From the IMG/VR virus record IMGVR_UViG_3300006045_001036: a stretch of DNA of 64,000 nucleotides; one strand, given 5' to 3'. Origin of the DNA: a virus (lineage: Duplodnaviria; Caudoviricetes). The first letter of the stretch is position 1. Each line of letters opens with the position of its first letter. Shown here piece by piece: positions 24,268 through 56,394 of the stretch. The notes below the pieces were generated by a model. The model ran no database searches, had not been told where the DNA came from, and saw only the letters and a list, made by a program, of their open reading frames with translations. Position numbers and translations under genes: made by a program.

Positions 24268-24299
24268 GACTCCGTCCCCTCGAATTCGGGGACGGAGTC
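24268..24299. terminator. Hairpin bounding convergent cassette 1
   Basis: 12 bp inverted repeat GACTCCGTCCCC/GGGGACGGAGTC. Confidence 0.7.
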
Positions 24300-24333
24300 G
24301 CTGTAAATGAATCCGATGTTTTGCAATTAGCCC

Positions 24334-24362
24334 TTGACAAATGTATGTTTCTATGATAGAAT
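24334..24362 (+). promoter_or_regulatory. sigmaA promoter
   Basis: TTGACA-17 nt-TAGAAT. Confidence 0.8.
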
Positions 24363-24397
24363 GATAATTGTGAAAATATTACTGCAAGGAGAGTCGA

Positions 24398-24769
24398 ATG
24401 TTTCTTTTTAAGTGCGAATGTGGTTGCTGCTTTACGGTTAAGGAAGAGACGTTGAAAAACATCACCAAAAACTATCATTGCCAAAACTGTAATACAGAAA
24501 TGTGTCATGTTATCGAAAACTATGACAAGCTCGACTTTAATAATTCAAACTCTGTTAAGCCAATAGGAGTGAAGATAGAATCCATGTCTGAGCCTAATGC
24601 AGATGAGATAAATAAGAAACTACGGACTGCTCCGATGTTAAAGTCGTCTTCACGATTATGGACAAAACACGTTCAGGACGACTTATTGTCTAAGTTCTTA
24701 TCCTCACTGTTAGCTCTGTGTTGTCTGGTATCTGTACAACCGATAAACCCGATACAGGTAATTGCATAA
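24398..24769 (+). CDS. Zn-finger protein A (paralogue of 55484..55762)
   Basis: AAGGAG RBS; MFLFKCECGC...KNYHCQNC. Confidence 0.8.
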   Translation: MFLFKCECGCCFTVKEETLKNITKNYHCQNCNTEMCHVIENYDKLDFNNSNSVKPIGVKIESMSEPNADEINKKLRTAPMLKSSSRLWTKHVQDDLLSKFLSSLLALCCLVSVQPINPIQVIA

Positions 24770-25022
24770 CGGACAGTCCTGAAGCTAATAAATGTGTTGT
24801 AGTTGAATTCAAGCTAAGCAAAACTTCGCTTTTTCCGCCCATTATCACCCTGCTGTCACTCGAAAACAAATCTCGGAATGACTCTAACTCATTTATCAAA
24901 ATATTTATACCGCAATTCTTACAAAAAGCGAAATCTTTGTACTCAGCGACACAACCGCAGATGGTGCAAATTGATGAAATTTCTTCTTTTAATTCATTAT
25001 TTTCCGTTGTTTTATTGTCCAT
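24690..25022 (-). CDS. Zn-finger protein B (paralogue of 55171..55572)
   Basis: CTICG...CKNCG; GCATT motif at 25058-25062. Confidence 0.7.
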   Translation of the reverse strand: MDNKTTENNELKEEISSICTICGCVAEYKDFAFCKNCGINILINELESFRDLFSSDSRVIMGGKSEVLLSLNSTTTHLLASGLSVMQLPVSGLSVVQIPDNTELTVRIRT

Positions 25023-25067
25023 TTATTTAGTTTTGCCTTTCATGTATTTAAGAAATAAATGCTATCC

Positions 25068-25096
25068 TTGACAAATCCGCATTTCTGTAGTAGAAT
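25068..25096 (+). promoter_or_regulatory. sigmaA promoter of the PIN operon
   Basis: TTGACA-17 nt-TAGAAT. Confidence 0.8.
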
Positions 25097-25130
25097 ATAA
25101 AAGATGAAATCATAGAATGGGGGTAACTCA

Positions 25131-25625
25131 ATGAAACCCAGTTTGTATCTGGAAACTACGATACCGAGTTATTTGGCAGCTCGCACAAGCAATGACCTCA
25201 TCATTGCAGGAAGACAGGCTGTAACGCATGAGTTTTATGAAGCTGAGAGGTATAGATATGAACTCTGTATATCAGATTATGTCTTACAAGAATGTAGCGG
25301 TGGCGATTCCGAAGCGTCCAAACGACGTTTGAATTGGTTGAAAGGTGTCACTGTGTTAGAGAATATTCCGGAAATTGCACCTTTGGCGGAAACCTATCTG
25401 CAATTACTCTCAATTCCTCAGAAATCCAAAATTGATGCTTTTCATCTTGCGGTCTGTTGTGTGTATAGAGTCAATATTTTGTTAAGTTGGAACTGTACAC
25501 ATTTGGGTGTTGAGAGTATGCAAATTATTCAAAAATACAACGATACGCACGGTTTATCAACACCACAGATGATAACACCCGACTCACTTGTCGGCAAGTA
25601 TAAGGAGGTGGATTTTAATGGTTGA
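25131..25625 (+). CDS. PIN-domain (VapC-like) ribonuclease toxin
   Basis: YLETTIPSYL, DAFHLA, LLSWNCTHL motifs. Confidence 0.88.
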   Translation: MKPSLYLETTIPSYLAARTSNDLIIAGRQAVTHEFYEAERYRYELCISDYVLQECSGGDSEASKRRLNWLKGVTVLENIPEIAPLAETYLQLLSIPQKSKIDAFHLAVCCVYRVNILLSWNCTHLGVESMQIIQKYNDTHGLSTPQMITPDSLVGKYKEVDFNG

Positions 25626-25791
25626 CCCTATCGTTACAGAAGTGCGAAAAAACCGTGAGAAACTTCTTGAAAAGTTTGATGGAGATATAAACAAGCTTCG
25701 CACACATCTTGACGAACAGCGTCCCAAATGGGAGGATTTGGGATTTCGTTACGAAACCGTGGCAGAGCGGCAATCACGTTTTGCACAGTGA
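25618..25791 (+). CDS. Small partner of the PIN protein (putative antitoxin)
   Basis: AAGGAGGTG RBS; overlaps PIN stop; DPIVTEVRKNRE pattern. Confidence 0.7.
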   Translation: MVDPIVTEVRKNREKLLEKFDGDINKLRTHLDEQRPKWEDLGFRYETVAERQSRFAQ

Positions 25792-25815
25792 TTCACAAAA
25801 GTAAGGTTAAGTTAT

Positions 25816-25839
25816 GCCGTCACCTCTCGGGGTGACGGC
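25816..25839. terminator. Hairpin between convergent PIN operon and holin gene
   Basis: GCCGTCACC/GGTGACGGC inverted repeat. Confidence 0.7.
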
Positions 25840-25890
25840 TATTGCTTGACAAAGTGGCGGGAGTAACGATACTATCGAAGAGCGGAAAAA

Positions 25891-26148
25891 TTATCCATCC
25901 AACTCATCTATATCATCGGGATTCATCGGTTTCGGAGGTTGAGGCGGTTTAGGCGGTGTCCAACCCTTATACTGACTCTCTGTCTGGTGTTTAGCAAAGA
26001 AATACGTAATCACTGAGAAAAATATGTTGCCGAGCAGTTCACTTGATATCGACACATTCTGAGCTACTGCCAGATAACAAAATGTAACGGTTATCATGAT
26101 TGTAACAACGCTCTTTATAGTGCCTACATGGTTTTTCGGTGGTTTCAT
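25891..26148 (-). CDS. Holin-like two-TM protein
   Basis: ATG 26148 after AAGGAG; KSVVT...two TM segments...VITYFF; charged tail. Confidence 0.65.
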   Translation of the reverse strand: MKPPKNHVGTIKSVVTIMITVTFCYLAVAQNVSISSELLGNIFFSVITYFFAKHQTESQYKGWTPPKPPQPPKPMNPDDIDELDG

Positions 26149-26168
26149 ATTCTTCTCCTTTCGAGAAG

Positions 26169-26546
26169 CTACCCGCCGAACCCGAATTTTGATATAACGA
26201 ACCCGACGACTGCTGCGACTACGAGTGTGATAATCTGAGCTGTAACACTCTCCCATTTCTTGGCAGGTTTCTGCTCAATGTCTGTGACACGCTTGGAAAC
26301 TTCGGCAAGGTCTTTGGCGTTTTTCTCACCCTGCTTTTCAATCTTGTCATAAATACGTTGAATATGCTCGTTGAAGCGAGTGTTCATCTCCTTTATCTGT
26401 TGTACCATAGTCTCAACATTACTCGAGATTTTCCACACGGCTTCATGTATTTCTTCTATCTTGTCAACTCTTTTTTCGAGTGCGTCGTCCCTCTTTTTAA
26501 GGTCTTCGACGTCACGTCCTAAGAGTGCAAATTCCTTTTCGTTCAT
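26169..26546 (-). CDS. XhlA/BhlA-like lysis protein
   Basis: Coiled coil, EQKPAKKWE, single C-terminal TM; adjacent to holin-like gene. Confidence 0.65.
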   Translation of the reverse strand: MNEKEFALLGRDVEDLKKRDDALEKRVDKIEEIHEAVWKISSNVETMVQQIKEMNTRFNEHIQRIYDKIEKQGEKNAKDLAEVSKRVTDIEQKPAKKWESVTAQIITLVVAAVVGFVISKFGFGG

Positions 26547-26686
26547 AGCGAACCCCTCTTTTCTTCGCAAATTAATGTAACAGATGTCTACAGTTGATTT
26601 TAACTCTTCAACAAAATTTTAAACAATCCCCCGATTTCCGAAGGATTGTTCGTCAAAATTCGATTATTTGAGAGGGTTGAGGTTCT

Positions 26687-26875
26687 CTAAGTCGGAGTCG
26701 GCGAAGAAATATCAACTCGGTCGAGAGGACAAGTATTGTTAGCAACCCCGCACAATCCTGTACAATCTCTGCCATCGTAATCACAAGCGACGATAACCTT
26801 GTCATCAATCGCTTTCTTAGTCTTGTGCACGACTTCGGCAGTTACTGTTTCAGGAATCTTAGCCTTGTATATCAT
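26687..26875 (-). CDS. Small Cys-containing hypothetical protein
   Basis: GGAGG RBS, ATGA overlap. Confidence 0.6.
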   Translation of the reverse strand: MIYKAKIPETVTAEVVHKTKKAIDDKVIVACDYDGRDCTGLCGVANNTCPLDRVDISSPTPT

Positions 26876-27339
26876 GCTATTTCCTCCATTTCAAAATATT
26901 GTTCCCGAAGCCAATGCTCTAACGAGTTATATAGCGTTGCTCCTAAACTCCGAGCGTGTGAAAGACCTTGCTCTAACATTGATTTCACCGTATCGTATTC
27001 GAGGTCGTAGGCGATGCCGTCGTGGGTGACTACTCTTCCGCCATAGTGCTTATTTCCGACCGATTTAGACACTTCACAAGAACAGCCTGTTCCCAAACCT
27101 GATTTAAATTGCTTTCTCGTATATAACAGAGTGAACCGATAACCGCCAAAATATTCGTTAGAGATTGACAAAATTGGAGTGGATGAGGATTCACCTCCGT
27201 CATCCGAGGTCGGTAACACTACACAACCCCACGATATTGAATTGTTGGGACGCTCGTCGTTCTCGTATATAAACGCTTTGCAACCGTGGTTGTGAACGAG
27301 ATTCTCAAGAGCAGCCCTCAATTTCTGTGCTTTGGTCAT
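26872..27339 (-). CDS. Hypothetical protein
   Basis: AAAGGAG RBS before ATG 27339. Confidence 0.7.
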   Translation of the reverse strand: MTKAQKLRAALENLVHNHGCKAFIYENDERPNNSISWGCVVLPTSDDGGESSSTPILSISNEYFGGYRFTLLYTRKQFKSGLGTGCSCEVSKSVGNKHYGGRVVTHDGIAYDLEYDTVKSMLEQGLSHARSLGATLYNSLEHWLREQYFEMEEIA

Positions 27340-27399
27340 AGCCTTCTCCTTTCTCAATAAACAAGGACGGCGAGCGACTCCCACCGTCCTGTGACTTTC

Positions 27400-28485
27400 T
27401 TATGCCGCAATCTTAACAGGTCTTTCGTAGGTCTTCGCACTGGTGTTGTGGAGGATTCTCCACCCGAGCTGTTGCAGTTCAATGTTGCGGTCGTAATCCT
27501 TCGCCGTGTGTGCTGCTTTCGTAACAGCGTTCATTACCGAGTAAACGGAGGTCGGTCCCGCTACGTCAGATTCGTCAATGTGACTTGCGATGAGGTCAGC
27601 TTCTTTGTCGGTGAGAACGATTTCTTTGCGGAGGTTTGCAACAATCTGGATGGTCGGAGCATCAATAATTTGTTCCGCTTTCTCCTTGATTTGAGCCATA
27701 ATCTTCTCAATCTTATCTTGAGACAGGAGTTCGGCAACTTTCTCACGAATGACCTTAGGGCTAAGTCTGCGTTCTTCGGTCGCTACTTCGCAAGCGGGAA
27801 GGAGTTCGCCGAGTTCCTGTTTCTTGCCGATGTGGAAACGGCGGTAAACCCCGAGACCGTCCGAAGAGGCGGCAACCATGCCGTTAGAGCAAACAAGTCG
27901 GTATACGAAAGGCACAATGCGGAAAGACGAAAGCCCGACTTCACTGTTGTGGATTGACACGCCGAATTGGAGTTCGTCGCCGACTGTTACGGATTCGGTG
28001 AGTTTCTCCGACACAAAGCTCATTTGGAGATAGTCATCGGTAATATTCGCCGACTTCATTGTAAGCCCGAAGTCGCCGAGCTTGGAATCCTCGATTGCTT
28101 CAATGACTTCCATGTTGTCAAGTCTTTCGTAGCTGTTTGACAGGAAGGCACGAGCGATAGGATTGCCGTCTTTGTCTGTCGTATAGCGTATCATTCTCGG
28201 AGTGTCGGGGATTTCTTTCGAGATGTCGCTGATGGTGTTCATGAGGGTTGTTGAGCCGAGACCGAGCTTCTCAAGCTTTGAAGCAAACCCGCAGGGGATG
28301 CCGTGGTGAGCAAGGATTTGTCTGTATGCGTTGTCTGAAACCCGCTCTTTACCCCCGCCGAGTGCCGTGCCTAAAACGTAGTCGGCGATGTATTCACGGT
28401 TGTTGACGATAACGTCTTTGCAAGTCTTAGCGTAGTCAGTTGCTTTCGCTTTGAGGTCAGCGTATTTGTCCAATGCAATAATCAT
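27400..28485 (-). CDS. DUF932-like protein
   Basis: RAFLSNSYERLDN, NSEVGLSS, RLVCSNGM motifs. Confidence 0.8.
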   Translation of the reverse strand: MIIALDKYADLKAKATDYAKTCKDVIVNNREYIADYVLGTALGGGKERVSDNAYRQILAHHGIPCGFASKLEKLGLGSTTLMNTISDISKEIPDTPRMIRYTTDKDGNPIARAFLSNSYERLDNMEVIEAIEDSKLGDFGLTMKSANITDDYLQMSFVSEKLTESVTVGDELQFGVSIHNSEVGLSSFRIVPFVYRLVCSNGMVAASSDGLGVYRRFHIGKKQELGELLPACEVATEERRLSPKVIREKVAELLSQDKIEKIMAQIKEKAEQIIDAPTIQIVANLRKEIVLTDKEADLIASHIDESDVAGPTSVYSVMNAVTKAAHTAKDYDRNIELQQLGWRILHNTSAKTYERPVKIAA

Positions 28486-28549
28486 AATTCATTCTCCTTT
28501 ATTATTGGTTGTTAATCTTACTGGGGAATCTCTGCTTGAGTAATGCGAA

Positions 28550-29314
28550 TTAGAAAGGGTAATCTTCACAGGTAAATTCTTGCTCGATTTCACCTTTGCT
28601 GTTGAGGACTGTTAAAGATTTGTACGGAGCAATATTATATGAGTTTCCGACAAACTTACAAACCCGCTCAATATCTCTTGTACAGAAGTAGGTTGGTTTG
28701 CGGGGTTCGCAAGAAATGGTCTTGATTGCCCGAGTGGACGAAGACGTTACGTAAGCGGTGTTGCCGTCCCGAGTAACAACTTTCAAGGTTCTCTTGCGAA
28801 GTTTGAATTGTGCAACGTGGTGTTCAACCAATCCAGTGAACTCCGCCATCTCTTCGTCAGTAGGGTTGCGGTAAACACGACAATCATCCCAACCCATGTC
28901 GTGAAGTTCCTTCCACGACATCGCTTTGAACTTATCAACGCTTAACCCACACTCTTTGCAGTAAGCATCAATAGCTCTGTCGTTAACCACTTTCGCCCAG
29001 TTACCTGCGAGTTCTACTGCCGTCTTGTGTTTCTCTTCGTAGTATTTGTCACCGCAATAAGCCGAAGTCAGCATCCACTTCGCATATAGTTGAATGTCAC
29101 TCATGCCGTAGTAAATGTTGTCGAAGTCTTCCCCCGACGAATTCTTGCGTGTTATGTCATTGACACAGAAATCGTGCGTGTGACGATTAAATATCAGACT
29201 CTCATGCTGTCTTCCATTACGGTCGTAGCTGACATTGAATAAGTTCGATTCCGCATCGAGCATCGTTGCTTTGCCGTTCTTGATGTTGAAAGCTTTGTAA
29301 ATGTTGTAACTCAT
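28550..29314 (-). CDS. Hypothetical protein
   Basis: AGGAG RBS; own GCATTAC promoter. Confidence 0.75.
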   Translation of the reverse strand: MSYNIYKAFNIKNGKATMLDAESNLFNVSYDRNGRQHESLIFNRHTHDFCVNDITRKNSSGEDFDNIYYGMSDIQLYAKWMLTSAYCGDKYYEEKHKTAVELAGNWAKVVNDRAIDAYCKECGLSVDKFKAMSWKELHDMGWDDCRVYRNPTDEEMAEFTGLVEHHVAQFKLRKRTLKVVTRDGNTAYVTSSSTRAIKTISCEPRKPTYFCTRDIERVCKFVGNSYNIAPYKSLTVLNSKGEIEQEFTCEDYPF

Positions 29315-29387
29315 TTCATTCTCCTATCTCATTCGGTTTGGGGAGTTCCCCCGCTCACACTTAAAGTAATGCTAACAATGTAAGGAG

Positions 29388-29567
29388 TTAGCACTCCAAA
29401 AATAAAACGAGGTCAACAGCGTCCCCGAAGTTCTGTGTTTCCAGCACAGCGAATATCTTGTCTTGTGCATCAGGGTCAGCATTCTCGATTGATTCCAGCA
29501 TTCTGCCGTAACTCCCTTGGGATTGTGCGAGGTTGCGAATAGCGTTCATAATTTGTTCTCTGTTCAT
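29388..29567 (-). CDS. Small hypothetical protein (59 aa, not in ORF track)
   Basis: MNREQIMNAIRNLAQSQGSYGR...DLVLFLEC; RBS and ATGA overlap. Confidence 0.7.
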   Translation of the reverse strand: MNREQIMNAIRNLAQSQGSYGRMLESIENADPDAQDKIFAVLETQNFGDAVDLVLFLEC

Positions 29568-29743
29568 GATGACATCCTTTCTCCTACAGCGAACTCACGA
29601 AGGAGTTCTATGGCTTTATCTAATTCCGCATCAGCGGTAGCTTGGGAACCGTAATTAGCGTGTTCGTAGAAAAGTCTGGTCGATTCGGCTTTAGCATCTA
29701 ACACGTTATCCAACAATTTCTCAAATTTATCGTTTCTGTTCAT
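29564..29743 (-). CDS. Small hypothetical protein
   Basis: AAAGGAG RBS before ATG 29743. Confidence 0.65.
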   Translation of the reverse strand: MNRNDKFEKLLDNVLDAKAESTRLFYEHANYGSQATADAELDKAIELLREFAVGERMSS

Positions 29744-29756
29744 GGTTAGCTCCTTT

Positions 29757-30044
29757 CTAAGCCAGTGCGGGGTTATTCTTCGTGATTGATTTATACAGGT
29801 CGTAAGCAGCTTGGAATTCAATGCGGTAATCATCGTTGCGAACTTTGCCGTCCCGAGTTCCTTGTCCGATAAGACCGTTCATAATGCCCTTAATAGCAGA
29901 TACGGCTTCCTGAGGGTCGCAAGACATTGTGCAGTCGATGATACAGTCCGTGTGTGTTTGGTAAGTCGGAGCAGTGCGGAGAGTTGCCGAAACCCCTCTG
30001 TCTTCGAAAGACTGACCGATTCTTCTGAAATCAAATTTGTTCAT
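29757..30044 (-). CDS. Hypothetical protein
   Basis: AAAGGAG RBS before ATG 30044. Confidence 0.65.
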   Translation of the reverse strand: MNKFDFRRIGQSFEDRGVSATLRTAPTYQTHTDCIIDCTMSCDPQEAVSAIKGIMNGLIGQGTRDGKVRNDDYRIEFQAAYDLYKSITKNNPALA

Positions 30045-30057
30045 GCTGAACTCCTTT

Positions 30058-30249
30058 CTAAACCGTGAATTCTTTATACTCTTCGTCAGCCGAAGTGCGA
30101 ACTCGCACACTAACTGAAACCGTTGCTTCAATGTCGTTAACCCCTGTGTAAATACTTTCATTATTCGCCACTATCGTGATTAATCCTTCATCCATGCAAG
30201 AAGCAAACATATCGGCAAATTGTTGATTAGTCATACCCAAATCATCCAT
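30058..30249 (-). CDS. Small hypothetical protein
   Basis: First gene after the GCATTAC promoter at 30287. Confidence 0.6.
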   Translation of the reverse strand: MDDLGMTNQQFADMFASCMDEGLITIVANNESIYTGVNDIEATVSVSVRVRTSADEEYKEFTV

Positions 30250-30304
30250 TCTCTTTGTCGGGATTACTCCCGCTCACAATTAAAGTAATGCTATATGTGC
30301 TACA

Positions 30305-30607
30305 CTATGAAACATAGACGAGGATTTCGTAGGGATTGTCAAGACCACGGAGGAAGTATTTGGTTGCCGAGAGGTAGCCGACTGTTCTTTCGTCCTCTTC
30401 TTCGAAGTTCTCGACAACACGGTAGTGGTATTCCTTGCGGGACATATCGTCGGTGTAATCAACTTTGCCGTCAACGAGAGCCATTCCCGAACCGTAACCG
30501 TAGATAGTCTTCATCATTGCGGTGAAGTGGTAATCTTCCTTGTTGTAACCGTTAAACACGTCAATCGCTTTGTTGAGTTGCTTTCTTATATTAGTTAATG
30601 TAATCAT
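30305..30607 (-). CDS. Hypothetical protein
   Basis: GGAGG RBS before ATG 30607. Confidence 0.65.
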   Translation of the reverse strand: MITLTNIRKQLNKAIDVFNGYNKEDYHFTAMMKTIYGYGSGMALVDGKVDYTDDMSRKEYHYRVVENFEEEDERTVGYLSATKYFLRGLDNPYEILVYVS

Positions 30608-30635
30608 ATCTTTCCTCCGTTCTACAGGCGGTCGA

Positions 30636-30809
30636 TTATTCCGACCACGTTCCATTCGCCTTATCTGCGTTAACAAGATTTCTCAGCACCGTTTGTCTTT
30701 CAGTGTCGCTTGCATTGAGTAACCAATACACCGCTTTCTTTACATCGGATTTCTTTACCGTCTTGGCAGTGCCGTTCAACACCTTTTGCAAGTCTTCGTA
30801 TTTACCCAT
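30636..30809 (-). CDS. Small hypothetical protein
   Basis: GGAGGTG RBS before ATG 30809. Confidence 0.65.
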   Translation of the reverse strand: MGKYEDLQKVLNGTAKTVKKSDVKKAVYWLLNASDTERQTVLRNLVNADKANGTWSE

Positions 30810-30911
30810 CTCTATCACCTCCATTCTTACTGTCGAGGTCGCCCTCTCGCTCTCTGAGAAAAGTAATGCGACTTCCAACAAAGTTAGAAGTCGCTGTTTG
30901 TGTTATTTAAT

Positions 30912-31088
30912 TTAGAAAGGGCAGTACTCGACAACTTCATATTCATTGTCGGGAAACAACTTTCGTCGTTGACTTGCATGAGTACGAGCTGCTTTCTCGC
31001 TGTGAAACGTCATAACGGAACTTGAAAGCTCTTCTGTTACAAACCGTCCTTCAGGAAATAACTTTGACACACATTTAATAGCGAACAT
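30912..31088 (-). CDS. Small hypothetical protein (58 aa, not in ORF track)
   Basis: AAGGAGGT RBS; MFAIKCVSKL...VVEYCPF. Confidence 0.65.
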   Translation of the reverse strand: MFAIKCVSKLFPEGRFVTEELSSSVMTFHSEKAARTHASQRRKLFPDNEYEVVEYCPF

Positions 31089-31100
31089 CTAAATACCTCC

Positions 31101-31634
31101 TTAATTTTTCGGAGCAGGGATTTCAAGAAATTCATAACTGTCGGCGATGTAGGTTATTCTTTCCCTGCGTTTCTTGCCGACCGAGCTTGCAATATTGAGT
31201 CCCATTAAACCCCTGACATCGGTCTGCTTTACCTCATTTCCTGTGTTAAGACGAACATCGGCATACTTGTGAAACTCGTTCTCGGTTACGTCTTTAGCCC
31301 AGTGAAACAGATAGTCTTGCTGACTACTTCTTAAATTAAAGCACTGGATTGACCACAAATCGTTTCGAGGAATGTAGCGAATCCGAATCCACCCTCGCTT
31401 CAACAGGTCGGTCATAATTTCTTCACGAGCCTTGCCCTCGACCCCGAGCCGTTCGCCGTGCTTCTCGTAGATTGCTTCGAGTTGTTCTCGGCGAAAACTG
31501 TAGGATTCGGGGTTTGCTAAGACTTCGGTTATATGCAGGGTTGATACAGGTAAGACTTTTCCTGTCGGTGAAATCCAGTATGCGTCTGCTTTGGGGAAGT
31601 TACCCGAACCCGCAGAACTAATCAATCTAATCAT
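31101..31634 (-). CDS. Hypothetical protein with putative head-targeting N-terminus
   Basis: MIRLISSAG start; AYWISPTG...GWIRIR pattern. Confidence 0.75.
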   Translation of the reverse strand: MIRLISSAGSGNFPKADAYWISPTGKVLPVSTLHITEVLANPESYSFRREQLEAIYEKHGERLGVEGKAREEIMTDLLKRGWIRIRYIPRNDLWSIQCFNLRSSQQDYLFHWAKDVTENEFHKYADVRLNTGNEVKQTDVRGLMGLNIASSVGKKRRERITYIADSYEFLEIPAPKN

Positions 31635-31647
31635 AGTGTTCTCCTTA

Positions 31648-31818: not shown

Positions 31819-31833
31819 CTTGGTTTCTCCTTT

Positions 31834-32482: not shown

Positions 32483-32497
32483 AATCTACCTCATTTC

Positions 32498-36843: not shown

Positions 36844-38241
36844 TCAGATGTTGCGTAATACGTGACTCATGTCGGATTTTGATAATCCGACGGCTGTCAT
36901 CAAGTCTTTAATTTTGAATTTGGGGTCGGCTTTAAGAGATTCAAGACCTACCGACACTGCGAGGGGAAGGTGTCTGATGTACTCGTCAACTTCAAGTTGT
37001 CGGACAAAGATTTCACCGTTCACGTCTTCAACGTCTGGTTCCACTTCGTTGTCGTTTTTGTCGGTCTGTTTATCGCTGTCTGTTCCTTTGTAATACTCTG
37101 TCTCGTTACGCAGAAAGTGTATGACCTGAGACACAATTACCTTGTGAGCGAATGTCGAAAATTGAAAGCCTTTCCTCGGTGCAAAGTTAGCTACTGCTTT
37201 CCACAATCCGAACTCGGCAGCTTGTTTTGTCTCTTCGAGAATTGCCGCATCCTTGATTTCGTGAAATTCCTTGCTCTTACGCAGGTACATATGTGCCAGT
37301 TGCCAAGCTAATTGACGATACTGCTCGAAAAGAGCGAGTTCTTCCTCTCGGGATAATTTTGCAGGCATTTCAACGATTGAGATTAGAGAATTGCTGTCTT
37401 TGGCAACAACAGTTCGGGGAAGATGAAGACGTACAGATATTTCGTCTTGAAGGTCTTCGTTGCTCTCGTTAGCGAGTTCTCGTTCGATTAGGTTGTGAGC
37501 AATTTCAGGAACTGAGCGAAGTCGTTTATCAGTGGCGGTTAAGAAATGGGGGATTCGGATTTCGTCGAATAATTTTTCCAGAGGGCGGTCTCCGTAGTAT
37601 CGAGCATAAAGGCGGGTAATTTCAGAATTAAGTAGCAGATACGCTCTGACTTGCCGCTTTTCTTCTGCGAAACACAGCTTAGTGCAACCTTCAAACGGAC
37701 TATAATGAGCAGTTATATACCCTAATCCCTGTTCATCGAATCTATGTTGTACGTAAATCTCAAATCCCTTATTGACAAACCACGAGGAAATAGGTTTTTT
37801 CGTCTTCAAATTTTGCCAAAAATCCGCACTGGCTTCGTTCCAACATTCGAAACGGTCGGCGTCCATCTTGGAATTAGTGAGAAATAAATCAAGTTTCTCA
37901 ACCAATAACGGTAATCCTTTTTCATCGGTAACGAGTTCCCCCGCCATTTTGCGAATAGGTTTGTTATCTTCCATTTCGTGACTTAACACAAACATTGCGG
38001 TAGGTTCTTCGTCCGCAAAATTCCATGTAAATCCTTTGACACAACTATGTTGGAGAATCGCAACACGTGTGTCTTCATATGCGGAATCGAATAAAGCATT
38101 TAATGAACAGACTAATAAAATTCTGTTGTTCGGGTCGTCGAAGCAGTGGAAAGCTTTACGAGATTTTGCGTTTAGTTTCACCATTGAAGTACAATCGTAC
38201 TTCTCGGAAACTAATTCAATTGCTTTTTGAGTTAATCTCAT
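36844..38241 (-). CDS. Phage sigma-70 family factor with long N-terminal extension
   Basis: Region 2 GLWKAVANFAPRKGFQFSTFAHKVI; terminal HTH IKDLMTAVGLSKSDMSHVL. Confidence 0.75.
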   Translation of the reverse strand: MRLTQKAIELVSEKYDCTSMVKLNAKSRKAFHCFDDPNNRILLVCSLNALFDSAYEDTRVAILQHSCVKGFTWNFADEEPTAMFVLSHEMEDNKPIRKMAGELVTDEKGLPLLVEKLDLFLTNSKMDADRFECWNEASADFWQNLKTKKPISSWFVNKGFEIYVQHRFDEQGLGYITAHYSPFEGCTKLCFAEEKRQVRAYLLLNSEITRLYARYYGDRPLEKLFDEIRIPHFLTATDKRLRSVPEIAHNLIERELANESNEDLQDEISVRLHLPRTVVAKDSNSLISIVEMPAKLSREEELALFEQYRQLAWQLAHMYLRKSKEFHEIKDAAILEETKQAAEFGLWKAVANFAPRKGFQFSTFAHKVIVSQVIHFLRNETEYYKGTDSDKQTDKNDNEVEPDVEDVNGEIFVRQLEVDEYIRHLPLAVSVGLESLKADPKFKIKDLMTAVGLSKSDMSHVLRNI

Positions 38242-47686: not shown

Positions 47687-47752
47687 TGGATAGGTTTCCT
47701 TTCAACTATTAATACTTAGAGAGCTGTGTATAGCTCTGTTTTATAAATGCTA

Positions 47753-49885: not shown

Positions 49886-50333
49886 TCTCGTCTACCTCGA
49901 TTCCTTCAACAACCTGCGTTGCTTCACCGAGTATTGCAGAAGCAGCGTCGATTATCTTGCCTCGCTGTCCTTCTTCCATAGTTTCAAACTCATTTGTCGA
50001 ACCCTCGATTTCAATCGGCTCGTTGGGGTTGAATCCCATACATTCGAAAGTAGTTTTCAGCGTTTTATCCGTTACAGTCACCGCCTTGTTTAACTCACCT
50101 TGAGCAGCAAGGCAGACTTGTAAAGCTTGCGGAGCATCCTCGACAGTGTCGAGGTTTGCCATAACGCTCTGTGTACTTTCTACGAGTTTTGTCTCCACCA
50201 GTTCTCGGGCTTGGTCGAGCCGTTCCACACGCTGTATTTCGTTAAGCACACGCTGTTTTTGAAAATTCTGAATGGTTGTCAGAAAATCAGCGTTGCTCAT
50301 GTGGTTTGCATTTTTCACAAATGTATTACTCAT
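49866..50333 (-). CDS. Helical protein overlapping TerL, candidate terminase small subunit
   Basis: Position only. Confidence 0.4.
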   Translation of the reverse strand: MSNTFVKNANHMSNADFLTTIQNFQKQRVLNEIQRVERLDQARELVETKLVESTQSVMANLDTVEDAPQALQVCLAAQGELNKAVTVTDKTLKTTFECMGFNPNEPIEIEGSTNEFETMEEGQRGKIIDAASAILGEATQVVEGIEVDENGEVIE

Positions 50334-50655
50334 CGTCTTCTCCTTCTGGCTCGGGAGCGGGGTTCATCTCTTCGAGCAGACTCTCCGCCGACACAGCGAT
50401 TGAGAATAAATCGGCGACAAGTTTCGCAGCCTGTTCCTCAAAACTCGAAAACTGCTTACCCGCAATCGCCAAACTTAGCTTTTCACCAAGTTCGTCACAA
50501 CTTCCCGAAATTAACCCTAATGCAGCAGTTGCTGACATTGTGTTATCGCCGTCCGCCGATTGGATAGCGACTTGAGAATCGACAGGAGCGGTAACTTCTG
50601 CCAAAACCTTGGTTTTTCTTCTCGGAGCTTTTGTTCCACTGTTGATAATTTTCAT
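50326..50655 (-). CDS. Putative head core/internal protein
   Basis: MKIINSGT start nearly identical to capsid MVIINSGT; IQSAD also shared. Confidence 0.6.
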   Translation of the reverse strand: MKIINSGTKAPRRKTKVLAEVTAPVDSQVAIQSADGDNTMSATAALGLISGSCDELGEKLSLAIAGKQFSSFEEQAAKLVADLFSIAVSAESLLEEMNPAPEPEGEDDE

Positions 50656-50659
50656 AATA

Positions 50660-50998
50660 TTATCCTCTCTTATTTCCTGTATTAGACAGTAATATTGTAT
50701 TGTTTTCCATTGTCATTTCCTCGATAGCAGTGTAGAGATTTTCTACCGCATATCGTAAATTTTGTGTTCTACGGTGTCCATCGGTGAAAAATCCTCCTGA
50801 CTCGACAAGAGCGTCAAGAGCTTTTGTCATCTTCTCTTGGTCGGGGAAAGTTTTGCGAATTAACCGTTCAAGTTTTCCGAGTGCTCGAACAGAATCCTCC
50901 GACCACAGATAATCAAGCATTTCATCATATAGGAGAACATACGCAAAATTCAACTTTCGCCGGACTTCGTTCTGCCACATACTTGTATTCTCTTTCAC
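50660..50998 (-). CDS. Hypothetical protein
   Basis: ORF in operon; exact start uncertain. Confidence 0.65.
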   Translation of the reverse strand: MKENTSMWQNEVRRKLNFAYVLLYDEMLDYLWSEDSVRALGKLERLIRKTFPDQEKMTKALDALVESGGFFTDGHRRTQNLRYAVENLYTAIEEMTMENNTILLSNTGNKRG

Positions 50999-50999
50999 A

Positions 51000-51218
51000 T
51001 TAACCTCCTAAGCTTCGGAGTGCGTTGTTAATACGTTTATTAGCACCACGCAACTGCGAATTTAATCGCACACACCATGAAACTCCACGATGCTTGAACT
51101 CTGTTAAAGATTTTTCAAACCGCTCTCGGTCATACTCTCGAATACAACAGAAGTACACTTCGTCATAAGAAACAGTATCTCGCCGTACTTCGTGGAGTCT
51201 TTTGATTAAATCAACCAT
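51000..51218 (-). CDS. Hypothetical protein
   Basis: Overlaps upstream stop. Confidence 0.6.
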   Translation of the reverse strand: MVDLIKRLHEVRRDTVSYDEVYFCCIREYDRERFEKSLTEFKHRGVSWCVRLNSQLRGANKRINNALRSLGG

Positions 51219-51573
51219 TCTCTTCTATCTCGTTGTATAGTTTAGTGATTTGCTTATACGTTTCATAAACATCGGCGGGTATTTCGCCAACATCACGCAA
51301 TAGCTTCTCAATAGCTTTATCTTCGGAAATCCCTTTCATTTGAACCTTAGTGTATAGTTCCATTCCAAGCAGTAAACTGTTCAAATCTTCGAGGGTTGGT
51401 ATCTTGATTTGATGACCGCCGAAGTATTTACATAGATTGAATAAACCGTCAATTCCTACGAAAGGTAACAACTCGGGAATAGCCGAATATTCAGGTTCGT
51501 TCTTGAGCGGGTATAGAAACTGCAATGCAAAAATCAAATCCTTATAATCTCGACTATTTTTATTTTCCGTCAC
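51211..51573 (-). CDS. Mor-like DNA-binding protein
   Basis: VGIDGLFNLCKYFGGHQIKIP resembles the Mor/C family dimerisation motif. Confidence 0.55.
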   Translation of the reverse strand: MTENKNSRDYKDLIFALQFLYPLKNEPEYSAIPELLPFVGIDGLFNLCKYFGGHQIKIPTLEDLNSLLLGMELYTKVQMKGISEDKAIEKLLRDVGEIPADVYETYKQITKLYNEIEENG

Positions 51574-51832
51574 ACCGTAAATACCTCACTTCCCGAGAAA
51601 ATCAATTTGCTATAGAATGGATAAACGAAGAAGTTTTGCCGTTTCATTGCAATCGTTATGTCTTACAAGCCATTCGGGACAGTATTGAGTATTCCGTGCA
51701 ACACAGTCGGTATCTTGTCCGCTATCCGCCTGAATTGGAGCGTGGGGCGAAAACTCGCTGTGCTGTTTTAACGAAACTGCTTCTTGTTGCATTAGCACAG
51801 AAATTTGAGTGGGACTGGCGGTATTATCCTAA

Positions 51833-52786
51833 TTAGTCCTTGTTGTTTTTGAGTTCTTGTTTTGCCGTAGCGGAAATGATGTCTTTAATCGCAACATGGA
51901 AATTATCGACATTTTCGTTTTTCGTAGTAATCGTTGTTTCTTCTGAAGAATTGCCGACAACACAGCGGAAATCTGCTGAGAACCCGCCTTTGTCATCCAT
52001 GGCAGTTATAGACGGTATTGTGAGAACTAAATCGTAATCTACCGACGTGCTGTTGATTTGACGAACATCCGCCTCTATCCTAATCGTGTTCCCGATTGCT
52101 TGTTTGGTTACATTCTTCAGCGTTATCCCCCGAGGGCGGAATTTGTCGATATCAAGCTTTGTCTCAAGCCATTCGATTGTGTCTTTCTTCGATTTTGATT
52201 TATTTTCAGCAGAAGAATTGATTTGAGCAGGATTCGGGTCAGCGGGATTTGTCGGCTCAGGTGGCGGAGTTTCATCGGAGTCAACCTTGTTCGTACTGTC
52301 TTTCATTCCGCTTGGCTTCATGGACGGTGCAGCGTGGTTATTGGTATCACCAACACGCTGAACATATACGAGAGCGTTTTCTCCTTCGTCAATCCGCTCG
52401 AAAGCCAGCATAGTGAAATTCCATGCCTGTATCCCTCTCCACATAGGATTAATAACCTTGCGTAAATCGGTGTCTGCCGAGAACACTGCGTAAAGTTCGC
52501 CGTCTTGCTCGTATACTCTTTCGAGTCCACGCAAATCATTATCGTTTTTAAGTTGATGGTATATCGAGTTAACCCAGTCGCTGTCAAACACAACAGGACT
52601 TTTCGACGTGCGGACGTTCACCGACGCATTCCCTGACATTGCCGAACTTTTGACCTCGACACCAAGACGCTGCAGAGCCGTCGCACGTTTAGACGAAGCA
52701 AGCAGCTTTGTAGTCTTATCCTCGCTCTTAATCGAAGAATAAATCTTAGATTTTGACATGAAATCAGCAGTAGATACTATTTTCAT
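51833..52786 (-). CDS. Putative head-associated protein
   Basis: MKIVST start; IYSS, LASS, VKSSA, INSSA motifs. Confidence 0.6.
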   Translation of the reverse strand: MKIVSTADFMSKSKIYSSIKSEDKTTKLLASSKRATALQRLGVEVKSSAMSGNASVNVRTSKSPVVFDSDWVNSIYHQLKNDNDLRGLERVYEQDGELYAVFSADTDLRKVINPMWRGIQAWNFTMLAFERIDEGENALVYVQRVGDTNNHAAPSMKPSGMKDSTNKVDSDETPPPEPTNPADPNPAQINSSAENKSKSKKDTIEWLETKLDIDKFRPRGITLKNVTKQAIGNTIRIEADVRQINSTSVDYDLVLTIPSITAMDDKGGFSADFRCVVGNSSEETTITTKNENVDNFHVAIKDIISATAKQELKNNKD

Positions 52787-52788
52787 CG

Positions 52789-53067
52789 TTAATCCTCCTG
52801 TACTTCAGGTAATCTTATTTCCACCAAACCACCAGCTTTCGGAATGATGATATACTTCATATTTTCTAACAGTTTTATCGTAGACGACATCAACGGTGTT
52901 GTCGGAGTCCACTCACTTCCACCATCGTTTGCCATAGTATTTAATCGTAAGGCAATTGCCTCTCTTTCCACACGTTCGGAAGCGTCTTTAGCAATTTTCG
53001 CTAATTCTTGTGCGGGTTTAAGAACATTCAATTGTTCTTGCGGTATAGCGGGTTGTAATTTATCCAT
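52789..53067 (-). CDS. Hypothetical protein, first gene of the packaging operon
   Basis: AAGGAGGT RBS; GCATT motif at 53120-53124. Confidence 0.75.
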   Translation of the reverse strand: MDKLQPAIPQEQLNVLKPAQELAKIAKDASERVEREAIALRLNTMANDGGSEWTPTTPLMSSTIKLLENMKYIIIPKAGGLVEIRLPEVQED

Positions 53068-53168
53068 AGTTATAATACCTCCTTAGAGCTTTATAGAGAG
53101 TTTATAGTTTCATTTAATAAATGCTATAATTAAGTCACCAATCTGTAAGAATGATGGCAAACTATGCC

Positions 53169-53197
53169 TTGACAAAACTTTAAATTTGTGTTACACT
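53169..53197 (+). promoter_or_regulatory. sigmaA promoter
   Basis: TTGACA-17 nt-TACACT. Confidence 0.75.
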
Positions 53198-53226
53198 GAT
53201 GCAAAACCTTGAAAGGATGTACACAA

Positions 53227-53499
53227 ATGTCTATTATATCTAAAGACCCCACCCGCTCTGAGGAACTAATTCGAGAGATTCAAAGAACCGAGATAGAACC
53301 TGATTTTTCCAAGAATTTACACTTGCAAGAACTCAAAGAGCGAGCCGAGAACGGCAATGAGTTAGACGAGATAGCATATAGAGACGAGCTTCACCGTCAA
53401 ACAGAAGAATTCTTCAAAGAAATCGAAACCACCCCCGAATACCAAGAAACCGACACAAAACTTCAAGAGCTATGTGAGCAGTTTGCTGACGAGTGCTAA
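53227..53499 (+). CDS. Small acidic helical protein (moron)
   Basis: AAAGGA RBS; own promoter; terminator hairpin at 53509-53538. Confidence 0.7.
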   Translation: MSIISKDPTRSEELIREIQRTEIEPDFSKNLHLQELKERAENGNELDEIAYRDELHRQTEEFFKEIETTPEYQETDTKLQELCEQFADEC

Positions 53500-53642
53500 T
53501 ACACAAAATTGCCGCTACTCCTGGTTGAATAGCGGCAACTTTATTTTCAAAACCCCTTGCTTTTCCCCAAATTCTATGTTAAACTAAGCAATAGCATTTG
53601 GTCAATTATGAACCAACGAAACTAAGAAACGAGGTAAATACT

Positions 53643-54503
53643 TTGAAACGATTTTTATCAATCCTATTATCAATCGCTGTATTCACTACAAGTACAGCGT
53701 ATAAATCGCACGAGGTTGAAGCAGACTCTGACATTGAACTTGGTGGGTTTGAGCCTATGAGTGAACCTGTTGAAGAAGGTATTGGGCTTGAAATTAAATT
53801 GAAAACAGTCAGTGGAAACGAGGTTATTGAAATCTCCAATCCGACTGATACTGCAATCTCGTGTAAGGGTCTATACTTGTCTAACGATGTCGAAGAACCT
53901 TTTATGTGGCAAATGCCGAGCGTGATTGTTCGCCCAGGGGAATCGGCTATTTTTGCGGGGGAGGGCGATAACGATACAGCGTTTCTAAAGAGATGTAAGG
54001 TTGATTTTAAGATTGCGGTTAATTATACGGTTCCTGTGTATAATCATATTTTGTTGAGTACGGCTAATGGGGAATATTTGAACTGTAGTGAGGTTAATTG
54101 GTGTAAAGAGTGCAACACCGACGATTGGTTTTACAAAAAAGTATCTATAACTTTAAGGAACAACCAATGGGGGGATGTCTATGAAGACGCACTCTACGCA
54201 ATTATTGATGAACACGAACAAACTATAACCTACTACACGAGATACCCTTTATCTTCGTGGAGAACTTATGAATTTAACGTGTCTGGAGATGGTGTTGAAT
54301 TCGGATATACGTACCTCGTTATACAACATTCTATTCAGCCTCCGCAGGTTTCCATGTCAAACAACAATAAGACGTCTACTATATCGCTGTATCACAATAT
54401 TCCGGGTATTTCTTTACCTGTTACTATCGCCCGACAGAGCTTTAGTGGTAATCCTCATGCAATCGTAATTGATGATGCGTGGGAGGCTTCCATTACCCAG
54501 TAG
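53643..54503 (+). CDS. Secreted lamin-tail-domain protein (moron)
   Basis: GAGGT RBS, TTG start, signal peptide; IEISNPTDTAISCKGLYLSND...W.MP...PGE; TTGCTT-17-TAAACT promoter. Confidence 0.7.
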   Translation: MKRFLSILLSIAVFTTSTAYKSHEVEADSDIELGGFEPMSEPVEEGIGLEIKLKTVSGNEVIEISNPTDTAISCKGLYLSNDVEEPFMWQMPSVIVRPGESAIFAGEGDNDTAFLKRCKVDFKIAVNYTVPVYNHILLSTANGEYLNCSEVNWCKECNTDDWFYKKVSITLRNNQWGDVYEDALYAIIDEHEQTITYYTRYPLSSWRTYEFNVSGDGVEFGYTYLVIQHSIQPPQVSMSNNNKTSTISLYHNIPGISLPVTIARQSFSGNPHAIVIDDAWEASITQ

Positions 54504-54665
54504 AGAGTAATGGCAGAGTTGTAATTACAAGAGTGGAGTGAATACTTAAATAATTTAGCCGTTACTTCCACAGGTAACGGCTTTAAACACATCCAACGAC
54601 AAAATCAATTGATGGCAAGCTGTGTAAAGTATTGTATATACTTATTACCGAAAGGAGAAAATTTC

Positions 54666-55056
54666 ATGATTAAGATTAAGAGTTCAAGCGGTGTCGGGGG
54701 GGGGGCGAATTTGTTCGTCTGCCAACAACGAGTTCAACGACATAAAGGCATTTCTTGAAGATATTCGCAGTCAACAAGGTTCGGAGGACAGATACGTAGC
54801 AGAGACCAAAGGAAATCATACTGTGAATATTCCTGCGAATGCACTCGCACAAGTTGTAGATAAGTTCTTCGGAGCGATGTTAGTTGTTGCTGAGGAAACA
54901 GGGGCAACCTACGATGCTTATGTCAACGGTTTCAACTATTGGTTGAAACTCTCCGAGAAACGTATCAACGACACACACGGTGAAAGTTTGGGAAACGCTT
55001 CAACAGGATTTATCAAATCGGCATTGAAACAGCAAGTGGCTTATGAAATGAGATAG
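54666..55056 (+). pseudogene. Gene frameshifted at a G10 tract (phase-variable or sequencing error)
   Basis: AAAGGAG RBS and ATG at 54666; removing one G from 54696-54705 gives MIKIKSSSGVGGGRICSSANNEF... Confidence 0.7.
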
Positions 55057-55170
55057 CGAAAATGGCATGGTTGGATGCCGAGAATTAATACACAGCTTAG
55101 CCGTTGCCTACGGAAGGTAACGGCTAATTTATAATATTAAGCATTTATTTTGCAGGAGGTGATAAATTTC

Positions 55171-55572
55171 ATGGAAAACGAAGAAAACTCAAAAATTCCC
55201 GAACCAGTCGATGTGCCTGTTCAAGAGTATTTGAAAAGTATTGATACCAATTTAAAGCAACTTGTTATTATACTTGAATCCATTACCAACGACAAAAACG
55301 AAAACAGAGAGCAACAATGTGAGGAAGATGAAGATGAAGAAACTCCATTGGTTTGTTCTGTCTGCGGACACACTACATTAACGTACCATGACATTGAGCT
55401 TTGTGGGATATGTGGAGTAAATTGCATGGCTCGAGGACTTCTCAAACTCCAAGATTTTTTCGAATCGCTTGGTAACGGTGAAATTAATCTTGGCAATAAA
55501 TTTGAATTTGCGAATTGGCAGGTAGAGACTCGACCGTCAGGCTGGAGGTTTGCCCAACAGAAGCAGGGGTGA
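55171..55572 (+). CDS. Zn-finger protein B' (paralogue of 24690..25022)
   Basis: AGGAGGTG RBS; CSVCG...CGICG; GCATT motif at 55141. Confidence 0.8.
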   Translation: MENEENSKIPEPVDVPVQEYLKSIDTNLKQLVIILESITNDKNENREQQCEEDEDEETPLVCSVCGHTTLTYHDIELCGICGVNCMARGLLKLQDFFESLGNGEINLGNKFEFANWQVETRPSGWRFAQQKQG

Positions 55573-55762
55573 CAATTTTGCCGTTTTTATTAATGTACAC
55601 ACCTGGGTAATAAACATTACTCGATTCTACTGGATTTTCATTTTCAGCAACAAAGCACTTTTTCGTAATGCAGTTTTGACAGAAGTAGTTTTTGTGGTGG
55701 TTTGTTATTGTCTCTTTCTTAACCGTAAACATACACCCGCATTCGCAAGTGAATAAAAACAT
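55484..55762 (-). CDS. Zn-finger protein A' (paralogue of 24398..24769)
   Basis: AAAGGA RBS; MFLFTCECGC...KNYFCQNC. Confidence 0.8.
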   Translation of the reverse strand: MFLFTCECGCMFTVKKETITNHHKNYFCQNCITKKCFVAENENPVESSNVYYPGVYINKNGKIVTPASVGQTSSLTVESLPANSQIQIYCQD

Positions 55763-55794
55763 ATGCAATTCCTTTCTTGGTAGATAATACCCGC

Positions 55795-55823
55795 ATTATA
55801 CCACATTTTGATGAACCTGTCAA
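55795..55823 (-). promoter_or_regulatory. Consensus sigmaA promoter
   Basis: TTGACA-17 nt-TATAAT. Confidence 0.88.
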
Positions 55824-55916
55824 GTAAACCGCCGTTACCTAACGAGGTAACGGCAAAACTGTGTAAAAGAGCATTTATTTAAGTGTGAAATAAAACGTGG
55901 AAAGGAGGAATGTTTA

Positions 55917-56075
55917 ATGACTTTTAGTGAAAGAGTAGACACTCTAACCCAACCATTAACACCCGAGCAACAAGAACAACACGACAGAGATTTTAATAAG
56001 TGTGTGGAAGCTTTAGCGTCAATCTTTCGGGCAATCCACACCCAAATCCACAGGCAAGAAACCCAGTTTTCTTAA
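55917..56075 (+). CDS. Small protein (52 aa, not in ORF track)
   Basis: AAAGGAGG RBS; MTFSERVDTL...QETQFS; GCATT motif at 55871. Confidence 0.65.
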   Translation: MTFSERVDTLTQPLTPEQQEQHDRDFNKCVEALASIFRAIHTQIHRQETQFS

Positions 56076-56288
56076 TGAAACTATTGTACTGGCGGTGTTT
56101 AACTCAACGAGCGGTTGAAGTATGTTTGACATGAGTTGTTTTATGGTGTCATCGTTAAAAGCACCACTTTGAATTTTTGCGGAGGTTTCAAAGAAATTTT
56201 CACTTAATGCCGTAGTAAACGCAGGATAGTTTGCAATAGTTTCGGCGACAGTGTCGGGAATGATTTTGTTAATCTCTTCTTTTGACAT
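56019..56288 (-). CDS. Small helical hypothetical protein
   Basis: AAAGGAG RBS; consensus sigmaA promoter. Confidence 0.75.
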   Translation of the reverse strand: MSKEEINKIIPDTVAETIANYPAFTTALSENFFETSAKIQSGAFNDDTIKQLMSNILQPLVELNTASTIVSLRKLGFLPVDLGVDCPKD

Positions 56289-56324
56289 GGTTTAGGCTCC
56301 TTTGTAAATTTTCAGAATACCTAT

Positions 56325-56353
56325 ATTATAGCATGATTTACCAAGTCTGTCAA
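56325..56353 (-). promoter_or_regulatory. Consensus sigmaA promoter
   Basis: TTGACA-17 nt-TATAAT. Confidence 0.88.
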
Positions 56354-56369
56354 CCCGCAACTAAAACAA

Positions 56370-56394
56370 AAGTATGGGCGAAAAGCCCATACTT
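56370..56394. terminator. Hairpin ending the tail operon and bounding cassette 3
   Basis: AAGTATGGGC-GAAAA-GCCCATACTT, T-run on the minus strand. Confidence 0.75.

Follow-up and report, generated by a model that had tools for sequence, protein, structure and literature searches.

Tail-to-tail overlapping gene cassettes in a very divergent giant phage: a plausible antisense switch between host-type and phage-type promoters

Why does a phage carry pairs of small genes placed tail to tail with overlapping coding ends, each partner behind a promoter of a different class, and why does the same design occur three times? The question is raised by a 64-kb stretch of DNA (64,000 nucleotides (nt), hereafter the window) from the virus record IMGVR_UViG_3300006045_001036, the parent contig of which is 219.5 kb long. 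Between positions 24268 and 56394 the window contains three such cassettes, formed by genes A and B (cassette 1), their paralogues B' and A' (cassette 2) and two open reading frames (ORFs) of 52 and 89 aa (cassette 3).

The organization of the cassettes makes a mutual-antisense early/late switch plausible, and we rate the chances that mutual antisense control is their working principle as about even. In the proposed mechanism, the three would be self-contained accessory cassettes in variable regions of a divergent phage, each with two small convergent genes, one transcribed from a consensus host sigma-70/sigmaA promoter and the other from the phage motif GCATTTATTT. Each mRNA would run on as a near full-length antisense of the partner and end at the far hairpin. 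Polymerase collision and double-stranded RNA would make the two genes mutually exclusive, the host-promoter gene being on at entry and the phage-motif gene later, so that the whole would constitute a convergent excludon inside a mobile terminator-plus-promoter cassette. As to the role of the proteins, superinfection exclusion or host take-over can only be guessed from analogy with small reverse-oriented genes of prophage early regions, and the roles offered in a first-pass annotation of the window, those of a timer, a toxin/antidote pair or a sensor of superinfecting phage, are speculative.

Three cassettes with two classes of promoters

Cassette 1 begins with an outer hairpin at 24268..24299 (perfect stem of 12 bp, loop of 8 nt), followed by the sigma-70/sigmaA-type promoter of A at 24334..24362 on the plus strand (TTGACA-17-TAGAAT with a TG, 11/12 matches). 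Gene A (24398..24769, +; 123 aa) encodes a zinc ribbon of the CxCGC...CQNC type within residues 1-62, and its tail is antisense to the end of B (24690..25022, -; 110 aa), a distant member of the same family with its zinc ribbon at residues 19-37. The GCATTTATTT motif, resembling a phage promoter, is located at 25053..25062 on the minus strand, 30 nt before the start of B.

Cassette 2 is inverted relative to this order. Its outer hairpin (55097..55127, with a T-tail on the plus strand) belongs to the GGTAACGGC stem family and is followed by GCATTTATTT at 55141..55150 (+), 20 nt before the start of B' (55171..55572, +; 133 aa). B' converges with A' (55484..55762, -; 92 aa), the promoter of which (55795..55823, -) is a perfect TTGACA-17-TATAAT. 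The next hairpin (55831..55854, perfect 10-bp stem, T-tail on the minus strand) is common to cassettes 2 and 3 and forms with the adjacent promoter a composite resembling the promoter-early stem-loop (PeSL) units discussed below. In cassette 3, GCATTTATTT at 55871..55880 (+) lies 36 nt before the 52-aa ORF (55917..56075, +), which has a strong Shine-Dalgarno sequence and for which no relatives were found. It converges with the 89-aa ORF (56019..56288, -), which had no relatives in the family libraries and no tblastn match among isolated phages; the promoter of the latter (56325..56353, -) is again a perfect TTGACA-17-TATAAT. The outer hairpin at 56370..56394 (perfect 10-bp stem, T-tail on the minus strand) terminates the upstream minus-strand operon. 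All four cassette hairpins have perfect or near-perfect stems.

Codon-by-codon reading gave 3' overlaps of 80 nt for A/B, 89 nt for B'/A' and 57 nt for the two ORFs of cassette 3. The six ORFs, these overlaps, the hairpins, the promoters and the GCATT motifs were all found where a first-pass annotation of the window had placed them. The same annotation had considered A and A', and likewise B and B', to be paralogues, and both relationships were borne out in pairwise comparisons: A and A' share 59% identity over residues 1-49 (BLASTP, E 2e-18), and B and B' share 31% over 52 residues that include the CxxCG...CxxCG.N motif (E 5e-7). None of the six cassette proteins had a significant match in Pfam, PHROGs or NCBIfam.

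The promoter assignment was examined across the window. A scan for sigma-70 sites with at least 11 of 12 matches to the consensus, with shuffled sequences as the control, returned six sites in 64 kb against 1.6 expected. These rare strong sites are located on accessory genes, namely A, A', the 89-aa gene, a PIN-domain gene adjoining cassette 1 and a Fic/HTH gene; the sixth is an orphan. Exact GCATTTATTT occurs five times (25062-25053(-), 55141(+), 55871(+), 3640(-) and 19149(-)), each copy having a same-strand start codon 20-41 nt downstream, and three of the copies precede B, B' and the 52-aa ORF. The looser pattern GCATT[TA][ACT]TT has 19 matches against 4.7 in shuffled sequences (maximum 11 in 200 shuffles), 17 of them upstream of a same-strand ORF. 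GCATT-type motifs stand before a nucleotide-metabolism operon, an operon running into the portal gene and the sigma-factor gene itself. On account of this excess and of its position before ORFs and operons, GCATTTATTT is a credible phage-specific promoter motif of a -10-only-like type. The view that each of the three cassettes opposes a host-type promoter on one side to a genome-wide phage motif on the other is thus upheld.

Three promoters of the sigma-70 type also have GCATTT within their 17-nt spacer; they belong to the PIN gene (25068-25096), the Fic/HTH gene (12848-12876) and an A homologue on the outside contig L001 (1087-1115). Besides marking phage promoters, the motif may be a binding site for repression of host-type promoters.

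We then looked at the DNA between the partners. The overlaps, folded on both strands, gave z-scores from +0.05 to -1.86, no better than those of shuffled sequences, and a hidden bidirectional terminator in the form of a hairpin or palindrome in the overlaps was rejected on these grounds. The terminator scan inside the cassettes returned only two weak sites, 55751-55734(-) and 56240-56259(+), in agreement with the earlier statement that no terminator separates the partners; no known RNA family from Rfam was detected within the window. Since terminators are lacking between the partners and hairpins are placed outside, each predicted transcript should cover the partner gene.

A zinc-ribbon family facing convergent genes

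A word-based search revealed a single outside homologue of A, the protein P0002 (73% identity over the domain), encoded on the 1.6-kb JGI contig L001. This gene has a perfect TTGACA-17-TATAAT promoter and is overlapped by 35 nt by a convergent small ORF, the product of which is not B-like. The profile of the A domain, used against 1.84 billion proteins, collected 17 proteins, most of them of 67-73 aa. Common to them are a zinc ribbon of the CxCGC...CQNC type at the N-terminus and, at the C-terminus, the motif G..V..IPD..I.V.F, which ends two residues before the stop codon. A and A' belong to this unnamed family of zinc-ribbon proteins of about 70 aa.

The A and B profiles had no matches in IMG/VR, the A profile had none among JGI metagenome contigs, and tblastn with a canonical family member found none among isolated phages. 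Against PDB sequences, the family profile matched only generic zinc fingers (E > 0.04). The AlphaFold2 model of the canonical member (pLDDT 82) has the order strand-strand-helix-strand-strand-helix-strand; it had no Foldseek match in PDB at E <= 0.001, and the ESM Atlas yielded only unnamed clusters. B and B' had no outside homologue in a set of 5.8 billion proteins, and the model of B (pLDDT 54) was uninformative.

The canonical 70-aa family profile was also run against the 1485 ORFs of the window. The top hits were A (E 5.5e-16) and A' (E 9.5e-14), followed by B (E 2.1e-4), with the match to B spanning the zinc ribbon and the C-terminal motif in the correct order. The B/B' profile aligned with the family profile in hhalign (88% probability, E 2.8e-6, 53 columns, both halves), and MAFFT aligned B and B' with the family end to end, down to the stop codon. 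Judged by these matches, B and B' are distant paralogues of the zinc-ribbon family of A, and each A/B cassette therefore consists of two distant relatives placed tail to tail. The earlier view of A and B as two separate families had to be given up in favor of one.

The genetic surroundings of the family could be inspected in ten outside loci, nine of them with DNA (L001-L009) and one contig by its gene map only. In all ten, a single zinc-ribbon gene lies in reverse orientation between a divergent upstream neighbor and a small convergent downstream neighbor. Four of the loci have overlapping gene ends (91, 35, 23 and 23 nt), and gaps of 7-36 nt separate the genes in the others; the overlap of 91 nt is that of P0006, encoded on a 4.2-kb ENA contig (sample ERZ27257348). 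Both copies in the window, A and A', likewise face a convergent gene. The convergent arrangement is thus supported as a trait of the family, and its conservation as a lone reversed gene facing a convergent partner is new here. Of nine family genes, six have a recognizable promoter of their own at a distance of 23-48 nt from the start codon, in many cases with an extended -10, and in five loci (L003, L004, L005, L007 and L009) the partner is apparently the last gene of the opposing operon. Flanking genes (Cro/Xre-type HTH proteins, S24 or M78 repressors, integrases, ORF6N, PcfJ/PcfK and a Tad2-like gene), where they identify the element, place the family in the early regions of temperate phages or of conjugative elements; one outside locus belongs to a Bacillota genome bin.

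What the zinc-ribbon gene faces varies. The partners in L002, L005, L006 and, weakly, L003 represent one small helical family. Their genes often come last, behind a Cro/Xre-type HTH gene, and the proteins of L002, L005 and L006 have a QP-containing motif at the end. Helical partners of about 53-60 aa were noted at 1089-1271 in L002, 1492-1656 in L005, 1063-1224 in L006 and 2738-2911 in L009, and no match in known families was found for these proteins. The partners in cassette 3 and L001 were also compared with the helical family, and membership received no support. The pairing proposed in the first-pass annotation was therefore retained in part: all ten outside relatives of A face a small convergent gene, but the partner is not always B and a gap replaces the overlap in some loci. 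Because L001 and most other loci have a different small partner and B/B' lack outside homologues, A and B are not an obligate pair. The occurrence of homologues of A and B apart from each other, named in the first-pass annotation as evidence against its reading, was thus observed in part.

These data bear on the idea of a partnership at the protein level, in which the cassette products would bind each other, as a zinc-ribbon heterodimer or a toxin/antidote-like pair, and convergent order would merely keep them linked. The paralogy of A and B, the conserved helical partner gene and the presence of the PIN-domain gene with its own promoter next to cassette 1 speak for it. However, the partner differs between loci (of B type, of helical type or, in cassette 3, unrelated to either); resemblance to known families of toxins or antitoxins was seen in no member; and opposed promoters of different classes speak against co-expression. 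The complex prediction for A and B (score 0.00) returned no verdict and counts neither way for binding. Altogether, we consider such a partnership distinctly improbable as the explanation of the arrangement.

Arrays of alternating convergent pairs were present in L002, L008 and an ENA contig. In L002 (729-2411), a composite of terminator hairpin and promoter is repeated three times at distances of 525-557 nt, with one convergent pair per unit; the composite that recurs is 49-82 nt long, at 74-86% identity. The minus-strand genes of L002 start directly beside the hairpin, and no obvious promoter was found for them. In L008, a divergent Tad2-like (anti-Thoeris) gene at 1091-1459 adjoins the zinc-ribbon family gene. 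There are hints that arrays of the L008 type are anti-defence or accessory loci.

Overlaps, coding signals and a shared C-terminus

To what extent do the overlaps themselves require an explanation? For 69 genes of the window, the antisense frames were followed inward from the 3' end: 41% of them are free of stop codons for at least 57 nt, 32% for at least 80 nt and 27% for at least 89 nt. What is unusual is the design and its repetition: three times, convergent genes without a spacer or terminator between them combine promoter classes asymmetrically and have the hairpins outside.

The coding ends were then analyzed for the family C-terminus, V-x3-P-x11-stop. The resulting 51-nt register, with exactly 11 codons from V-x3-P to the stop codon, is kept by B of cassette 1 (V at 24740, stop ending at 24690) and by both ORFs of cassette 2, B' (55522 to 55572) and A' (55534 to 55484). 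In A, V-x3-P is present and the stop codon comes three codons early. The opposing V-x3-P cores are offset by 2 nt in both cassettes, with codon position 2 facing position 3, and it is this geometry that leads to the overlaps of 89 and 80 nt. An ungapped comparison of the family C-terminus with the 20 terminal residues of every ORF of 40 aa or more (712 ORFs) ranked B 1, A' 2, B' 18 and A 390; A thus fails the motif. The canonical C-terminal motifs of B (residues 91-110) and of A' fall within their overlaps, so that in each A/B cassette the conserved C-terminus of at least one partner is encoded inside the overlap; in cassette 2, this perhaps applies to both partners. Partners that are paralogues sharing DNA for their C-termini are also new here.

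Perfect mirror symmetry, with the motif in both tails of both cassettes, was considered as well and kept in part, B and A' being clear, B' marginal (18/712) and A failing. Part of the mirror is automatic, since the G of the Val codon pairs with the C of the Pro codon, and conservation on two strands is therefore to be read as a possibility rather than a result. The tail of A looks like run-on sequence; about 14 of its residues form a hydrophobic stretch, the codons of which (24680-24740) lie opposite those of the C-terminal motif of B.

Such run-on sequence is at the center of a rival account, according to which independent accessory genes (morons) were placed tail to tail by recombination at hairpin/promoter units, the overlap is a run-on to the next stop codon and the antisense RNA a tolerated by-product. 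Several observations fit this account of passive packing. Frames running on for 57-89 nt are to be expected 27-41% of the time, as stated above; the A tail looks non-coding and lacks the family C-terminus; past the conserved domain, A, A' and the homologue from L001 have divergent tails; different loci have different partners; and canonical relatives often have a gap of 7-36 nt in place of an overlap. It does not readily explain why the lone reversed gene and its small convergent neighbor recur in all ten outside loci despite protein identities of 25-43% and different neighborhoods, why the asymmetric promoter design is found three times in the window, or why the terminator-like hairpins are consistently outside the partners and not between them. 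We regard passive packing as possible, if somewhat doubtful.

Another account would have one coding strand per cassette, the opposing ORF being a chance frame in a regulatory antisense RNA. The bsrG/SR4 and txpA/RatA loci of Bacillus prophages are type I toxin-antitoxin systems with opposed promoters and about 100 nt of 3' RNA overlap in phage-derived DNA, and the convergent 3'-overlap geometry of the cassettes is like that of bsrG/SR4-type loci. The weak coding scores of the 52-aa ORF and of B (the lowest, 0.04 per codon), for neither of which an outside homologue was found, agree with this account. On the other hand, the annotated frame was the best of six models of codon usage in the non-overlapping part of all six ORFs, and all six have Shine-Dalgarno sequences. 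B and B' have a Cys motif in common, both halves of the family profile are matched by them, and the C-terminus of B ranks first of 712. Unlike in type I loci, both partners look protein-coding, as judged from the coding signals and conserved Cys motifs, and soluble, and no short hydrophobic toxin peptide was apparent, as assessed without formal prediction of membrane segments. A single coding strand is accordingly very improbable.

The antisense switch itself has to be weighed against a number of observations. The overlap length alone is within chance, and the A tail scores as non-coding by codon usage. Since only one strand of each outer hairpin carries a T-tail, the opposing transcript is merely assumed to terminate there; in cassette 1, no plus-strand hairpin was found after B, and the A mRNA may therefore continue into the PIN gene. 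The sigma-like protein of the phage (encoded at 36844-38241) is an unproven candidate for the reader of GCATTTATTT. Finally, the convergent order in the relatives could stem from inheritance of a two-gene unit instead of antisense selection.

A more far-reaching version of the antisense switch may be formulated. The A/B cassette would be an old tail-to-tail pair of paralogues with the family C-terminal motif on both strands, kept by selection on both proteins together with mutual antisense control. It would be an instance of a general class of modules, in which a small zinc-ribbon gene with its own promoter faces an operon end; in phages and conjugative elements of Bacillota, such modules would switch accessory genes from one infection stage to another. 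We hold this extended version to be unlikely as a whole. If true, tail-to-tail paralogues sharing C-terminal DNA would be rare natural homologous peptides encoded on both strands.

Phage context and comparison with known systems

Besides a portal of T4 type (Pfam Portal_T4, E 1.6e-30) and a capsid protein of Gp23 type (E 1.2e-9), the window has genes for S-adenosylhomocysteine hydrolase, DNA methylases, a DnaB-like helicase and a protein of 465 aa that contains sigma-70 region 2. DNA searches with both cassette regions found no matches among isolated phages, and the relatives of the major capsid protein are only about 22-27% identical. These comparisons point to a very divergent giant phage with T4-type portal and capsid genes. 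Its host is probably a Bacillota bacterium. Most genes of the window lie on the minus strand, and the cassettes are situated in or beside two plus-strand islands.

Among neighboring genes, the unit at 25131-25839 beside cassette 1 consists of the PIN-domain gene (weak Pfam match, E 0.005) together with a small ORF that overlaps the end of this gene. Having both a near-consensus promoter and a terminator hairpin of its own, the unit is a candidate toxin-antitoxin-like module. The Fic/DOC plus HTH gene at 11599-12876 (Pfam Fic, E 3.5e-15), behind a near-consensus sigma-70 promoter, is a probable host-directed accessory gene. At 51525-51836, a 103-aa plus-strand ORF is reversed within a minus-strand operon and overlaps both neighbors, and may represent either a further reversed gene or a shadow ORF.

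If the antisense switch is real, the cassettes represent a compact, portable design for timing, or mutually excluding, two accessory genes during infection; if it is not, they are ordinary tightly packed orphan genes. The family-wide arrangement provides a testable handle on an uncharacterized zinc-ribbon family in mobile elements apparently from Bacillota. Among named families, NCBIfam NF047912 (ECs_2282 family putative zinc-binding protein of lambdoid prophages) was matched weakly by two of 16 A-family members (best E 0.0018, below the curated cut-off) and not by A itself; its hosts are Enterobacteria, in contrast to Bacillota here.

An antiparallel overlap is known from the Pseudomonas phage Fc02, in which strand-specific RNA-seq placed one of the two genes olg1 and gene 10 on the lysogenic side and the other in the lytic operon, and both, small accessory genes, have exclusion activity (PMC9936078). 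The likeness is one of arrangement, two phage genes on opposite strands sharing DNA. Unlike the cassettes, the Fc02 overlap is not a tail-to-tail pair of paralogues, and the phage described here may be lytic.

Convergent excludons with terminators embedded in the neighbor are a common feature of E. coli, where 165 have been mapped, 146 of them with overlapping terminators (PMC12288877, ExcludonFinder). The terminator lies within or beyond the neighboring gene, so the mRNAs overlap, and interference together with RNase III cleavage is predicted to give reciprocal expression (PMC12288877; review PMC7154746). The cassettes similarly have converging neighbors on opposite strands with predicted terminators beyond the partner. 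They differ in that the overlap, of 57-89 nt, extends to the coding regions and the predicted antisense spans the partner in full, and also in being phage-borne, present three times and equipped with two promoter classes, by which the switch would be coupled to the course of infection.

In T4-type phages, orphan genes are flanked by PeSL cassettes, in which a stem-loop terminator adjoins a strong sigma-70-like promoter and through which shuffling occurs (PMC2839356, PMC4122927). The same combination of a stem-loop and a strong sigma-70-like promoter before a Shine-Dalgarno sequence and start codon is present at 24268-24362, 55854-55795 and 56394-56325. As in those phages, the setting is one of variable regions and head genes of T4 type, around cassette genes with no or almost no outside homologues. 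Stem sequences are repeated in the window, as is the whole composite, three times, in the relative L002. The stem GGTAACGGC occurs exactly four times, always in three cassette-bounding hairpins within 54557-55856. Hairpins with the stem GCCGTTACC/GGTAACGGC were noted at 54557-54582, 55097-55127 and 55829-55856, and a related copy at 25816-25839 has GGTGACGGC; all hairpins of this family bound accessory cassettes. By analogy with PeSL stems, they may be recombination sites. Conservation of about 100 bp from copy to copy, enough for homologous recombination, is a feature of PeSL units; the hairpin-promoter units of the window have in common only stems of 9-10 bp and, in the promoters, just the hexamers, and the composite of L002 recurs over 49-82 nt. 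Moreover, each cassette includes an opposing gene as its second member, with another kind of promoter motif before it, and published PeSL cassettes are not described so. Altogether, the cassettes are best viewed as a putative excludon-like convergent pair inside a PeSL-like cassette, and an antisense switch, if real, would link PeSL-type cassette shuffling with excludon-type regulation.

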